64,000 nucleotides of DNA. Origin: Candidatus Latescibacterota bacterium. Its GTDB lineage: Bacteria; Latescibacterota; UBA2968; UBA8231. Below are positions 60,431 to 63,919 of this stretch, one piece after another. Every line of letters starts with the position of its first letter. Position 1 is the first letter of the stretch. The translations under genes and the position numbers were made by a program. The notes below the pieces were generated by a model. The model searched no databases and had not been told where the DNA came from. It saw only the letters and a list, made by a program, of their open reading frames with translations. The DNA lies in contig CBDETY010000003.1 in the NCBI GenBank assembly GCA_965243025.1, forward strand, positions 6,712,185-6,776,184, read 5' to 3'.

Positions 60431-61726
60431 ATGAAACCCCTCGATGTAATCTACCTGCATTCGCACGATACAGGCCGCTGCGTGCAGCCGTACGGACACG
60501 CGGTTCCGACCCCGTCCATTCAACAGCTCGCCGAACAGGGCCTGCTGTTCCGGAACGCCTTCTGCGCGGCGCCGACCTGCTCGCCGAGCCGGGCGGCGCT
60601 GCTGACGGGGCAGTGGGCCCACTGCAGCGGCATGCTCGGCCTGGCGCACCGCGGCTTCTCGCTGGCCGATCCCCGCCGGCACCTGGCGCGGGTTCTGGCG
60701 GACGCGGGGTACCACACCGTTCTCGCCGGTATTCAGCACGTGGGCAGCGACGACGGGGAGCTGGGGTACCTGCAGGTGCTCGATACGGACTCGAACAGCG
60801 CCACGGAGGTCGCCCCGGCTGCAGCGGAGTTCCTGTGCAACCCTCCGGACCGTCCGTTCTTCCTCGACGCCGGTTTCTTCGAGACCCACCTCCCTTTTCC
60901 CGAGCCCCGGGACGACGGCCGGTACTGCCGGCCCCCGGCCCCCCTGCCAGACGCTCCGGAGGTGCGCGCCGACATGGCCGGTTTCAGGGAGAGCGTCCGT
61001 CTCCTCGACGACGGCGTCGGGATCGTCCTCGATGCCCTGGAGGGAAGCGGCCGCGGCCGGGAAACCCTCGTCGTCTGCACCACCGACCACGGCCTTCCCC
61101 TCCCGGGGATGAAGTGCAACCTCACGGACCACGGCATCGGGGTTATGCTCGTCATGCGCGGTCCGGGAGGCTTTCAGGGCGGCCGCGCCATCGACGGCAT
61201 GGTCTCCCAGATCGACCTGTTTCCCACGCTCTGCGAGCTGCTCGGGATCGAGCCTCCCGGGTGGCTGCAGGGAAGGTCGATGATGCCGCTGGTGCGCGGG
61301 GAAGCCGAGGAAATCGACGAGGAGGTGTTCGCCGAGGTAACCTATCACGCCGCGTACGAGCCTCAGCGCGCCGTGCGCACCCGGAGGTGGAAGTACATCC
61401 GTCGTTTCGAGGAGCGCGGCGGCCCGGTGCTGCCCAACTGCGACGACAGCCACAGCAAGCAGTACCTGCTCGAGCGCGGCTGGCGGGAGCGGGCGCCGGA
61501 GCCGGAGCAGCTCTACGACCTGGCGTTCGACCCGAACGAGGCGCGCAACCTCGCCGCCGATCCCGGCAGCGCCGGGGTTCTGGACGGAATGCGCCGGCGC
61601 CTTGACCGGTGGATGCGGGAGACCGGGGATCCCCTGCTGTCCGGGCCGGTGCCGGCCCCTGCCGGGGCCAGAGTCAACGATGGAGACGGGCTGTCGCCGC
61701 GCGAGACACCGCGGCTGATCGAATAG
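60431..61726 (+). CDS. sulfatase (formylglycine-dependent)
   Basis: CSPSRAALLTG, TTDHG, EQLYDL..DPNE. Confidence 0.95.
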   Translation: MKPLDVIYLHSHDTGRCVQPYGHAVPTPSIQQLAEQGLLFRNAFCAAPTCSPSRAALLTGQWAHCSGMLGLAHRGFSLADPRRHLARVLADAGYHTVLAGIQHVGSDDGELGYLQVLDTDSNSATEVAPAAAEFLCNPPDRPFFLDAGFFETHLPFPEPRDDGRYCRPPAPLPDAPEVRADMAGFRESVRLLDDGVGIVLDALEGSGRGRETLVVCTTDHGLPLPGMKCNLTDHGIGVMLVMRGPGGFQGGRAIDGMVSQIDLFPTLCELLGIEPPGWLQGRSMMPLVRGEAEEIDEEVFAEVTYHAAYEPQRAVRTRRWKYIRRFEERGGPVLPNCDDSHSKQYLLERGWRERAPEPEQLYDLAFDPNEARNLAADPGSAGVLDGMRRRLDRWMRETGDPLLSGPVPAPAGARVNDGDGLSPRETPRLIE

Positions 61727-61866
61727 CGCGCCCGGACCTGCCGCGAAGAGGCCTGTCCGTATCCGAAGGATCCCGGTGCCCGCTGACGACGGGTCCGGAT
61801 CCGGGCCGCCCGCTATCGATTCCGCGGCGCTTGAACCCCTCCTGGCGACGGAGTACCGTTCCTGCC

Positions 61867-62673
61867 ATGACGGAAACGCGCCCTACGGCAGACGAGCGGG
61901 ATTTCTTCGATTCCAAGGGGTACCTGCAGCTCGATTCCCTGCTGCCCTCCGCCCTGGTCGAGCGGCTGCTGGACCGCCTGGATGCGGCAATGGAACGGCG
62001 CGCCGCGCTCGAACGGAGCGGCGTCTCCTCGAACAGCCCGGGAAAGCGGCTGGCCGTCGAGGGGGAGGACCGCCGCATCTTCCACATCCTCGACGACGAC
62101 CCGGAGTTCCTCGAGCTCGTCGACTACCCGGCCGTCATGCCGTACGTGCGGGAGCTTCTTCACGAGAAGGCCCACTTCCACGCCTCCGACGCCATCTGGG
62201 AACAGGGAGCCGCCGGGCGCGGGCCGGGGTGGCACATCGACGGCACCGACCGCGGCTACCGCAGACTGCGCCCGCGCATTCCTCTGCTTCAGCTGAAGAT
62301 CGGCTACTTCCTGTCGGACATGACCCTGCGGGACCAGGGGAACCTGATGATCGTGCCGGGGTCGCATCGCGACGACAGCGAGCCGGACCCGGAGCAGCTG
62401 TCGGGATTCGACACGCTTCCCGGGGCGATGCAGGTCTGCGGTCCTCCGGGGACCGCGGTCCTGTTTCACAACGCCCTGTGGCACTCCCAGGGCCCCAAGC
62501 GCCGCCCCGGCGGCCGGCGCATCATGCTGTACTACGCGTACGAGGTCCCCTGGGTCATCGGCAACCCCGAGCACTGGAGCTACCCGACCGGGTTCTACAA
62601 CGCCCTCTCCCCGGAGCGCCGCAAGCTGTTCCACGGATTCCTCTTCGATCCCCGGGAATACCGTTTCGCCTGA
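61867..62673 (+). CDS. phytanoyl-CoA dioxygenase (PhyH) family protein
   Basis: FFDSKGYL, WHID, IVPGSH, FHNALWH. Confidence 0.9.
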   Translation: MTETRPTADERDFFDSKGYLQLDSLLPSALVERLLDRLDAAMERRAALERSGVSSNSPGKRLAVEGEDRRIFHILDDDPEFLELVDYPAVMPYVRELLHEKAHFHASDAIWEQGAAGRGPGWHIDGTDRGYRRLRPRIPLLQLKIGYFLSDMTLRDQGNLMIVPGSHRDDSEPDPEQLSGFDTLPGAMQVCGPPGTAVLFHNALWHSQGPKRRPGGRRIMLYYAYEVPWVIGNPEHWSYPTGFYNALSPERRKLFHGFLFDPREYRFA

Positions 62674-62793
62674 GGTCGAACGGGTCCTCTTCACAGTGCG
62701 GTTCCTCAGGCCCCGGGCGTTGCACGAACCGCCATGCGGCAGGCGGGCAAGCTTGGCCTGTCTCCAGCCTGGGATATCCCTTGCGGGCAAGCG

Positions 62794-62868
62794 TGGCTGC
62801 GGCGCGAGGAGTCGAACCTCGATTTCCGGGTCCAAAGCCCGGCGTCCTGCCAGTTAGACGACGCCGCA
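62794..62868 (-). tRNA. tRNA-Gln(TTG)
   Basis: TGCGGCGTCGTCTAACTGGCAGGACGCCGGGCTTTGGACCCGGAAATCGAGGTTCGACTCCTCGCGCCGCAGCCA: cloverleaf, anticodon TTG, U1-A72, G73, encoded CCA. Confidence 0.97.
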
Positions 62869-62902
62869 AAAAAAAACCCCCGGTCGGATCATCCGCCGGG
62901 GT
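62869..62902 (-). terminator. intrinsic terminator (attenuator 3:4) directly upstream of tRNA-Gln
   Basis: CCCCGG-CGGA-TGA-TCCG-A-CCGGGG hairpin, then G and 8 T running into tRNA position 1. Confidence 0.85.
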
Positions 62903-62930
62903 CAGGTGCCAGTTCTGTTCTCTTGTTCAG

Positions 62931-63023
62931 TCAGCAAAGCGAACGTGGACAGACCCATCCCGGCGGGCTCACGACCCGCTGTCGCTGCTGCCGCTGACCG
63001 GAATGGGCTTCGCGCGTTCTCAT
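62931..63023 (-). promoter_or_regulatory. putative Gln-rich leader peptide MRTREAHSGQRQQRQRVVSPPGWVCPRSLC
   Basis: ATG to TGA, 30 aa, CAG CGG CAG CAG CGA CAG CGG cluster, lies between promoter and terminator. Confidence 0.7.
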
Positions 63024-63031
63024 GGTTTTGA

Positions 63032-63059
63032 AATGTATGGCCACAGGGAAAACCGTCAA
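63032..63059 (-). promoter_or_regulatory. sigma70 promoter of the leader/tRNA-Gln unit
   Basis: TTGACG (63059-63054), 16-bp spacer, TACATT (63037-63032), -35 overlaps the stop codon of the M48 gene. Confidence 0.7.
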
Positions 63060-63919
63060 CGACCGCGGCCGTATCCCCGCTCCAGCCTGGAGCGCATGCG
63101 CTGGAAGCGCTCGGCCTCGAGGCGCCCCCCCGGGTCGCCGGCCCTGGTTATCCGCTTCTCGATGTCGCGGATGCGCTCGGGGGTCGCCGGGTGGGTGGAC
63201 ATCAGCTTTTCGAAGCCCCCCGGCCGCCGGCCCGATTCCGCTTCGAGCAGCTTGGTGAAGAAGGTGACAAGGCCGCGGGGATCGTACCCGGCGGCGATCG
63301 TGTAGGCGACGCCGTAGCGGTCCGCCTCCCGCTCGTCATCCCTGCTGAATGCGGCCATCCCGCCGGCTTCGGCGAGGTCTGCCGCGGCCTCGGCGAGAAG
63401 CGCCGGTTCTTCCCCCAGGGCAATCGCCGCCAGCAGCTCCAGGCCGAACCGGGTCGCGAGCTGGTTGGCCGAGTGCCTCCCGACCACGTGGCCGATCTCG
63501 TGGGCGAGCACCCCGGCTATCTCCGCCTCGTTTTCCGCGAACAGCAGCAGGCCGGAGTAGAGGTAGATGAACCCTCCGGGAAGGGCGAAGGCGTTTACCT
63601 GGCGCGGATCGTCGAGGACGCGGATGCGGTAGCGGATCCCGGGCCGGTCGCGGTGGCTGGCGAGGACGAGGGGCCGGCCGATCTCGGCGGCGTAGCGCTG
63701 GATTTCCGAGTCCGGCAGAACCGGCTGCTCCGCTTCGATCTCCCGGGAGAGCCTGCGTCCGAGTTCGATCTCGGTCTCCGGCGGGACCAGGCTCCTTCCC
63801 AGCTGCTGCCGGACCCCGGCGCAACCGCTGAGGGCGACCAGCAGCAGAAGGAGTGCCGGGGTACCGAGGCAGCGAGGGCCGCGGTCGGCCGCAGTCGCCG
63901 ACCTTGCGAACTGGCGCAT
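63056..63919 (-). CDS. M48 family metallopeptidase (BepA/LoiP-like lipoprotein)
   Basis: LSGC lipobox, VNAFALPGG, LAHEIGH, EREAD, STHP. Confidence 0.93.
   Translation of the reverse strand: MRQFARSATAADRGPRCLGTPALLLLLVALSGCAGVRQQLGRSLVPPETEIELGRRLSREIEAEQPVLPDSEIQRYAAEIGRPLVLASHRDRPGIRYRIRVLDDPRQVNAFALPGGFIYLYSGLLLFAENEAEIAGVLAHEIGHVVGRHSANQLATRFGLELLAAIALGEEPALLAEAAADLAEAGGMAAFSRDDEREADRYGVAYTIAAGYDPRGLVTFFTKLLEAESGRRPGGFEKLMSTHPATPERIRDIEKRITRAGDPGGRLEAERFQRMRSRLERGYGRGR

Follow-up and report, generated by a model that had tools for sequence, protein, structure and literature searches.

A tRNA-Gln gene preceded by a putative leader-peptide attenuator in a Latescibacterota genome

The transfer RNA (tRNA) gene for glutamine near the end of a 64,000-nucleotide stretch of Candidatus Latescibacterota bacterium DNA (GenBank assembly GCA_965243025.1, contig CBDETY010000003.1, positions 6,712,185 to 6,776,184; the whole stretch is called the window below) raises a question: what governs a tRNA gene whose first nucleotide directly follows the uridine tract of an intrinsic terminator? 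The gene, tRNA-Gln(UUG), closes a self-contained cassette of ~270 nucleotides (nt) on the minus strand, which further comprises a promoter-like site, a leader open reading frame (ORF), mutually exclusive helices, and a hairpin with eight uridines (U8). The cassette is likely to act as a leader-peptide attenuator with a leaderless transcript, through which translation would feed back on the supply of tRNA-Gln. An attenuator of this kind was proposed in the initial annotation of the window, and all of the coordinates and sequences given there hold, base for base.

The cassette and its counterparts in other lineages

The promoter-like site, TTGACG-16-TACATT (63059-63032), is the sole sigma-70-like match between positions 62000 and 64000, where 0.2 are expected from shuffled sequences. 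The leader ORF (63023-62931) translates to MRTREAHSGQRQQRQRVVSPPGWVCPRSLC before its stop codon and includes the run QRQQRQR. The leader's Gln codons are CAG in all four cases (62996, 62990, 62987 and 62981). The leader messenger RNA (mRNA) is probably leaderless, because the ATG follows the -10 hexamer by only 8 nt, which leaves no room for a Shine-Dalgarno sequence.

The same architecture precedes extra tRNA-Gln genes in G001, a genome of the same genus as that of the window (G000), in G016, from another genus of the family, and on the metagenome contig L174, with two, two and three tRNA genes, respectively. The recurrence of the Gln cluster and of matching helices upstream of tRNA-Gln in these three lineages supports the attenuator. 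Loss of the ORF or of its Gln codons in relatives had been named beforehand as an observation that would count against it; both are retained wherever the cassette exists. L174 surfaced through a generic detector that was run on all fetched loci. The M4 peptidase flanking its cassette shares no more than 53-56% identity with its best matches in the same family, and on this measure the contig is from a further genus-level lineage.

The leaders of G001 and G016 are 77% identical (E=6e-33). That of G000 is not alignable to its relatives by BLAST and was aligned by MAFFT only, yet all features are retained. Common to the four cassettes are a CATGAG start, CAGC.ACAGCG..T, CG..GGG in segment 2 of the predicted pairings (Table 1), CCCC.GC in segment 3, and GGG(G) followed by at least five T. 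In-frame Gln clusters read QPQRQQQ, QRQQQQQQ and QRQQRQRQ in the three other cassettes, with 5-7 Gln each. Between the end of the hairpin and T-run and the first tRNA there are 0-12 nt in each cassette. G000, G001 and G016 each have a single promoter-like match within 1.2-2 kb, which leaves 7-8 nt to the ATG, and the TTGAC of the -35 hexamer is invariant among these three; L174 differs (TTGCGC). In G001 and G016 the terminator of the cassette was the single or the top-scoring match of the scan over 1.2 kb. The second leader codon of G000, AGA (63020-63018, minus strand), is the rarest Arg codon in the long ORFs of that genome (2.9 per 1000). An ATG-AGA-A start is retained in three of the four cassettes and could be relevant to initiation on a leaderless mRNA.

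From the last Gln codon of the cluster to the core of segment 2 the alignment is ungapped, and the distance is 17 nt in every cassette (positions 43, 49, 40 and 40 against 60, 66, 57 and 57). Between the ATG and segment 2 the four cassettes vary in length by 3, 6 or 9 nt, as is predicted for a maintained reading frame.

These comparisons bear on whether the leader is translated at all. It could instead be an untranslated regulatory RNA that is riboswitch-like, is bound by a protein or a tRNA, or is released by the terminator as a small RNA (sRNA); the CAG/CAA run would then act as RNA, for example by pairing with an anticodon as in T-box RNAs. An attenuator RNA can have a second role in trans as an sRNA, which has been described for rnTrpL of Sinorhizobium, and the conservation of CAGCGR..T and of segment 2 could lie at the RNA level. 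Weak, sub-threshold matches to NsiR1, a cyanobacterial sRNA, also occur at the terminators of the cassette loci of G001 (L179:1561-1625, 31.2 bits) and G016 (L178:1635-1685, 25.5 bits), where the Rfam gathering score is 39. However, these matches, which cover spacer and terminator, probably reflect a mere likeness of hairpin and U-tail, and over the leader no Rfam family scores above threshold, eL15 and NsiR1 being the only sub-threshold matches. The ATG lies 7-8 nt after the -10 hexamer in all four cassettes, the Gln run is always in the frame of that ATG with no prior stop, spacing changes in multiples of three, and an ORF of 27-30 codons is held while most peptide positions and nucleotides diverge. 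No match to the T-box, glnA or Downstream-peptide models was obtained even at E<=10 in the window region. In L178 and L179 the T-box model likewise gave none at E<=1, and the glutamine riboswitch models (glnA RNA and Downstream-peptide) gave none. By eye, there is no UGGC bulge that could pair with the GCCA end of a tRNA. An untranslated leader is therefore quite unlikely.

The neighbourhoods of the four cassettes are M48 peptidase and PhyH-family genes in G000, PcRGLX-like and PhyH-HEAT genes in G001, metallophosphoesterase and GNAT genes in G016, and M4 peptidase and ImpB-type polymerase genes in L174. Because these are unrelated, the cassette appears to be selected as a whole, and the similarity between G001 and G016 is confined to the ~300 nt of the cassette. 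In the plainest alternative, the hairpin does no more than terminate transcription of the M48 gene, ORF and complementarity arose by chance, and the tRNA is transcribed by leaky read-through. No other terminator follows the M48 gene and the -35 hexamer overlaps its stop codon, while high-GC DNA gives many chance helices and the fold z-score of the leader is only -1.77. However, the whole unit is present in three other lineages that have no upstream M48 gene. M48 orthologues occur in 31 of 40 relatives, and none of the 29 loci fetched has a tRNA within ~1.5 kb. In G001 and in G002, another genome of the window's genus, the M48 gene lies beside a convergent PhyH-family neighbour, yet the spacer is different and contains no leader, no such hairpin and no tRNA. 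The M48-terminator explanation, which the initial annotation had held in reserve, thus fails for the other three cassettes and is highly improbable. The terminator may also serve the M48 gene, which is compatible with an attenuator role.

The locus formed by the M48 gene, leader, tRNA and PhyH gene is also found in related strains, on contigs of other runs, one of them labelled sponge metagenome. Variants were taken from DNA contigs of runs X6 and X8, with 40 of 88 differences listed. They include a -35 hexamer of TTGACA (63054), one A fewer between the -10 hexamer and the ATG, a Glu to Asp change at leader codon 5, and indels at the foot of the terminator; no change in the -10 hexamer (63032-63037) is among the 40 of 88 differences listed.

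Table 1. Features of the cassette and its surroundings in the window, followed by the three counterpart cassettes (positions are those of the window)
Feature	Position	Strand	Remarks
-35 hexamer TTGACG	63054..63059	-	overlaps the TGA stop codon (63058-63056) of the upstream M48 peptidase gene
-10 hexamer TACATT	63032..63037	-	16 nt from the -35 hexamer
Leader ORF, 30 codons and TGA (62933-31)	62931..63023	-	ATG 8 nt after the -10 hexamer
Regulatory codons CAG CGG CAG CAG CGA CAG (Q R Q Q R Q)	62979..62996	-	
Segment 1, GCCCATTCCGG	62998..63008	-	5' strand of the anti-antiterminator (1:2); in the minimum free energy fold
Segment 2, CCGCCGGGATGGGTC	62952..62966	-	alternative partners: segment 1, or the terminator 5' arm (antiterminator)
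Segment 3, terminator 5' arm, GACCCCGGCGG	62893..62903	-	
Segment 4, terminator 3' arm, CCGACCGGGGG	62877..62887	-	one A bulged; terminator duplex -19.2 kcal/mol
U-tract, T8	62869..62876	-	continuous with T1 of tRNA-Gln
tRNA-Gln(UUG)	62794..62868	-	CCA encoded; ARAGORN; Rfam tRNA, 61 bits
M48 peptidase gene (Pfam)	63056..63919	-	upstream context; no terminator of its own before the leader
PhyH-family dioxygenase ORF	61609..62673	+	convergent; longest ORF taken, real start possibly further in
G001 cassette			TTGACG-17-TACATT-7 nt-ATG; leader peptide MRTMYSSTSTQPQRQQQRIQISPGQRVFSI and stop; 30 codons; 2 tRNA-Gln
G016 cassette			TTGACA-17-GATATT-7 nt-ATG; leader peptide MRNSRLQRQQQQQQRIQSSLGQRPSMY and stop; 27 codons; 2 tRNA-Gln
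L174 cassette			TTGCGC-17-TACATT-7 nt-ATG (read by eye); leader peptide MSYLETQRQQRQRQRMQHSLGRQVWVC and stop; 27 codons; 3 tRNA-Gln

Alternative pairings and the proposed switch

The minimum free energy (MFE) fold of the G000 leader, calculated with RNAfold, consists of the helix between segments 1 and 2 (1:2; 63008-62998 with 62963-53) and the terminator. Of all leader segments, segment 2 pairs best with the terminator 5' arm in each of the four cassettes; it lies at nucleotides 52-74 of the ORF. The predicted free energies of this antiterminator pairing (2:3) are -21.0 kcal/mol in G000, -21.2 in G001, -23.5 in G016 and -19.5 in L174, and those of the terminator duplex are -19.2, -23.4, -26.1 and -25.1 kcal/mol, respectively; the two pairings are of roughly equal strength. 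The 2:3 pairing was equalled by 4, 0, 0 and 8 of 500 dinucleotide shuffles in the same order; the shuffle background for G000 is -13.7 +/- 2.4 kcal/mol against the observed -21.0.

In the four-way alignment the antiterminator columns are paired in 40 of 44 cells (90.9%), compared with 26-59% in slid registers, and the core columns are conserved and ungapped. The terminator was left out of this count because MAFFT misaligns its 3' arms. Two antiterminator pairs change on both sides, for example C-G to U-A at columns 106:176, where the base in segment 3 stays paired in the terminator too. With an alignment of four sequences, this covariation is compatible with the attenuator model and is not statistical proof of it.

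The effect of a ribosome was modelled with prefix folds, that is, with the transcript up to the terminator loop and with pairing forbidden from -15 to +13 nt around each Gln codon. A footprint placed on the Gln codons of the main cluster leads to 2:3 pairing in all four cassettes. In G000 the footprint covers segment 1, and the unmasked prefix folds as 1:2 instead, which amounts to a clean switch; the 1:2 helix here is an 11-bp core that is present in the MFE structure. Prefixes were used because full-length masked folds mostly retain the terminator.

In G000, the six-codon cluster of a short promoter-proximal ORF contains four Gln codons, and in all four cassettes an intrinsic terminator lies between the leader ORF and the target, and an antiterminator can form from the terminator 5' arm and a segment just past the regulatory codons. 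These are the marks of a ribosome-mediated attenuator. In the classical cases the target makes or charges the sensed amino acid; here only one to three tRNA-Gln genes lie downstream.

On the attenuator model, transcription would start at or next to the ATG and yield a leaderless mRNA, and a ribosome would translate the 30-codon leader behind the RNA polymerase. When Gln codons are decoded quickly, the ribosome would clear the cluster and segment 2 would be covered or recaptured by segment 1, so that the hairpin and U8 form and transcription ends one base before the tRNA. When the ternary complex of Gln-tRNA(Gln) is scarce, the ribosome would stall on the CAG cluster and mask segment 1. Segment 2 would stay free of the stalled ribosome because its core begins 17 nt past the last codon of the cluster, and could then capture the terminator 5' arm, allowing the polymerase to enter the tRNA, which RNase P would release from the read-through transcript. 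The net result would be negative feedback on the capacity to decode Gln codons. The sequences show the arrangement of the cassette, its conservation in four lineages, how strong the alternative pairings are and where they lie, and that the tRNAs are extra copies; we infer where transcription starts, that the ORF is translated, which way the switch works and what physiological signal it answers, and likewise induction upon slow Gln decoding.

The initial annotation further proposed that the interleaved Arg codons sense nitrogen status. CAG-CGR-AT forms the 5' strand of a local 1:2 hairpin in three of the four leaders, which gives these codons a structural explanation, and the nitrogen-sensing proposal is not upheld.

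Several observations weigh against the attenuator as set out here, and the first concern the RNA structure. The z-score of the whole G000 leader fold, -1.77, is not significant alone. In G001, G016 and L174 the 1:2 helix has only 5-9 bp (CAGCGRAT... with ...TTCGYYG) and is weaker than 2:3, and the unmasked prefix already forms the antiterminator, so that the off state in these three must rest on kinetics or on a ribosome over segment 2. The stop codon lies 20-30 nt beyond segment 2, and a terminating ribosome therefore does not mask that segment. Three of the leaders have extra Gln codons beside or after segment 2, and stalls at these remove 2:3 and would favour termination. At equilibrium the full-length transcript folds into the terminator even under most ribosome masks. 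Covariation is not above that of column shuffles, 49 of 500 being as good with four sequences, and 54 and 124 of 500 with three.

Other such points concern expression, function and distribution. The sole RNA contig (X19, 348 nt, 62530-62880, unstranded and of low depth) spans the tRNA and the 3' end of the PhyH gene, and RNA coverage in X19 is absent over 62903-63119, so that the leader is not covered. The leader of G000 contains only CAG, yet the tRNA has the anticodon UUG. Across the phylum the cassette was recovered from only 3 of 168 genomes (G000, G001 and G016) by five different searches, and it is not in G002, which belongs to the same genus as G000. Extra tRNA also does not cure glutamine starvation, and the physiological logic is unlike that of the classical cases. 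Since starvation could not be relieved in this way, the loop would be most plausible as a homeostatic device that keeps the supply of tRNA-Gln in step with demand or loss.

The structural points leave room for a translation-coupled attenuator that is not specific to glutamine, and that responds to a general slowing of ribosomes by antibiotics or stress, like the erm, cat and bmrCD leaders, or that works in the opposite direction. Ribosome-mediated attenuators that sense drugs do exist (PMC4191407), and with weak 1:2 helices, and with Gln codons next to segment 2 in three leaders, the response could have either sign. However, all that the four peptides have in common is 4-7 Gln codons in a run with Arg in between, every regulated gene encodes tRNA-Gln, and no arrest-peptide motif was recognised by eye. 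A general response, or one of opposite sign, is unlikely.

Distribution of the cassette and its tRNA genes

Within its own genome (6.8 Mb, 65% GC, 51 tRNAs by ARAGORN) the cassette stands alone. Gln makes up 3.7% of the codons in long ORFs of G000. At least four Gln in seven codons are found in 12 of 24,617 first-ATG ORFs of 15-60 codons, this leader among them; around the other 11 there is neither a promoter nor a terminator. A BLAST search found no paralogue of the leader in the genome. A hairpin and T-run within 30 nt upstream precede 3 of the 51 tRNA genes, and an ORF rich in the cognate codons is found only at the tRNA-Gln of the cassette; the scan of tRNA genes for cognate leaders and terminators that the initial annotation had called for thus singles out this one gene. 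The other two are tRNA-Phe (C3:3980195-3980270) and tRNA-Leu(UAG) (C3:5385918-5386002), with a GC-rich hairpin and T-run 1 nt and 25 nt upstream, respectively; no short ORF rich in Phe or Leu precedes them. Other tRNA genes of G000 have a TTGACA-type promoter 10-40 nt upstream. Upstream of another tRNA gene, a 19-nt unit (AGTAGTGGAATCACCAAG-like) is repeated three times head-to-tail in the ~60 nt before C3 1647150, abutting the 5' end of tRNA-Arg(CCU).

The genome searches covered the 168 genomes of one phylum, and the metagenome search used one narrow pattern. Other tRNA-Gln genes of the phylum have ordinary promoters or are placed after a protein gene. BLAST of the leader and tRNA against 40 relatives and 75 genomes of the family matched the tRNA part only; for the tRNA, G001 and G016 gave the best matches. 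A 34-nt leader match in G011 was set aside, as no tRNA adjoins it, and six CAG-rich BLAST fragments were rejected because there was no tRNA nearby. The leader motif pattern matched 17 of the 168 genomes, but only three matches adjoin tRNA-Gln, and patterns joining a T-run to tRNA-Gln found no cassette in the 168 genomes beyond those of G000, G001 and G016. When the leader pattern was relaxed to two mismatches, only the three matches with no mismatch were real and a reversed-pattern control matched about as often; ARAGORN found no tRNA in 12 loci (L254-L265) of the relaxed matches. A pattern for the tRNA 5' region gave one record over genome contigs, the contig of G001, and 106 loci over metagenomes, of which only L174 has the cassette and the remainder are from unrelated taxa; over viral contigs it gave no matches. 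Among 238 distinct tRNA upstream regions from all fetched loci, a hairpin, a T-run and a short ORF rich in cognate codons occur together only in the four cassettes.

G000 has three tRNA-Gln genes: one CUG, one UUG, and the second UUG of the cassette. G000, G001, G002 and G016 each retain both a housekeeping tRNA-Gln(UUG) and a housekeeping tRNA-Gln(CUG), at 97-100% identity across the genomes. Identity between cassette and housekeeping tRNAs is 60-72% (for the cassette tRNA of G000, 72% to UUG and 68% to CUG), and the cassette tRNA of G000 is 83-85% identical to those of G001 and G016. Judged by these identities, the cassette tRNAs are additional copies that evolve much faster than housekeeping tRNA-Gln. 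Both glnS, which scores above the NCBIfam cut-off, and gatB are present in the window's genome, and GlnRS (likewise above the cut-off) and GatB are encoded in all four of these genomes.

The cassettes of G001 and G016 hold tandem tRNA-Gln(CUG) and tRNA-Gln(UUG) genes. The initial annotation suggested that the tRNA in the window backs up a CUG isoacceptor; this is possible, as CAG accounts for 85% of Gln codons in long ORFs of G000, but the cassettes of the relatives have a CUG tRNA of their own. When the tRNA of the window (62794-62868, minus strand) is compared with L179:1635-1788 and L178:1691-1848, it appears as a mosaic, with acceptor, D and T arms identical or nearly identical to those of the cassette tRNA-Gln(CUG) of G001 and G016 and an anticodon arm of the type of the cassette tRNA-Gln(UUG) of G001. 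This pattern suggests that recombination or gene conversion reduced a cassette of two tRNA genes to a single one. In G001 (L179:1635-1709) and G016 (L178:1691-1764) the tRNA-Gln(CUG) genes of the cassettes have a C33/A37 anticodon loop (CCCTGAC and TCCTGAC), the latter gene without an encoded CCA; T33/G37 is found in the housekeeping tRNA-Gln genes and in the L174 copy.

The housekeeping tRNA-Gln(UUG) gene directly follows a conserved protein gene throughout the family (L007-L023 and L198-L203); the C-terminus of the protein reads ...MSGSGS.VYG.F.D... and is ispE-like by eye. In another family (L221, L222 and L228) tRNA-Gln(CUG) follows a gltX-like gene, a likeness also judged by eye.

The tRNA copies fit a further, doubtful reading, in which the cassette is a mobile rescue module that supplies tRNA on demand by sensing the speed of Gln decoding and turning on a divergent tRNA-Gln upon collapse of the housekeeping pool. 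Such a collapse could come from cleavage by a toxin that targets tRNA, by a nuclease of contact-dependent inhibition or by an effector of phage defence, and altered acceptor and anticodon stems would let the divergent copies escape the nuclease. The differing genomic sites, the one to three copies and the identities of 83-85% against 97-100% fit this reading, as do the mosaic tRNA of G000 and the C33/A37 anticodon loops in two of the cassettes.

Relation to known attenuators

In attenuators of amino acid operons (trpL, hisL, leuL, thrL, pheL, ilv), a short ORF in which codons for a single amino acid are clustered is combined with alternative helices and an intrinsic terminator. The cassette resembles them in its promoter-proximal ORF with a codon run, in its 1:2, 2:3 and 3:4 helices, and in that the position of the ribosome would decide between these. 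Unlike them, it has a tRNA rather than an enzyme as its target, it would sense Gln, and its leader is apparently leaderless. Its stop codon lies well past segment 2, in contrast to trp, and its terminator abuts the product RNA. We know of no described Gln leader, and in the full-text literature, of which most subscription journals and supplements lay outside the search, neither a Gln leader nor an attenuator before a tRNA gene was found. Further background on leader-peptide attenuation is given elsewhere (PMC4007540, PMC1183508).

The cassette would also act, as do the pheST attenuator and the predicted leaders of aminoacyl-tRNA synthetase genes, on the translation apparatus rather than on biosynthesis. 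The pheST attenuator governs a synthetase operon, and its sensor is the charged cognate tRNA. Whereas those leaders control the charging enzyme, the cassette would control the tRNA itself, closing the loop on tRNA supply. As for the form of the leader, polycysteine leaderless small ORFs are known from mycobacteria. The cassette is like leaderless leader peptides in that the transcript would begin at the AUG of a very short ORF that is enriched in one residue and lies upstream of the target. In Deinococcus deserti, where a leader of the aminoacyl-tRNA synthetase gene cysS is described, 14 leaderless leader peptides have been predicted, and none of them is known to precede a tRNA gene (PMC4007540).

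Like a T-box, the cassette would choose between terminator and antiterminator and so report on one tRNA species. Unlike a T-box, which binds uncharged tRNA and needs no translation, it lacks an architecture of specifier loop and UGGN bulge. To our knowledge, T-boxes do not occur before tRNA genes, and bacterial tRNA genes are under growth-rate or stringent control of their promoters and not under gene-specific feedback. As read from sequence, the cassette would represent a known mechanism that has gained a new class of target and senses an amino acid new to it.

If the attenuator is real, it would be the first case of a tRNA whose synthesis is set directly by how fast its own codon is decoded, and it would form a closed homeostatic loop on translational capacity. 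A search rule for other amino acids follows from it, namely to look for tRNA genes that have a terminator right against their 5' end and, ahead of it, a short ORF with many cognate codons. Attenuation would then include a non-coding product, would have glutamine among the amino acids sensed, and would be represented in an uncultured phylum that has been little studied.

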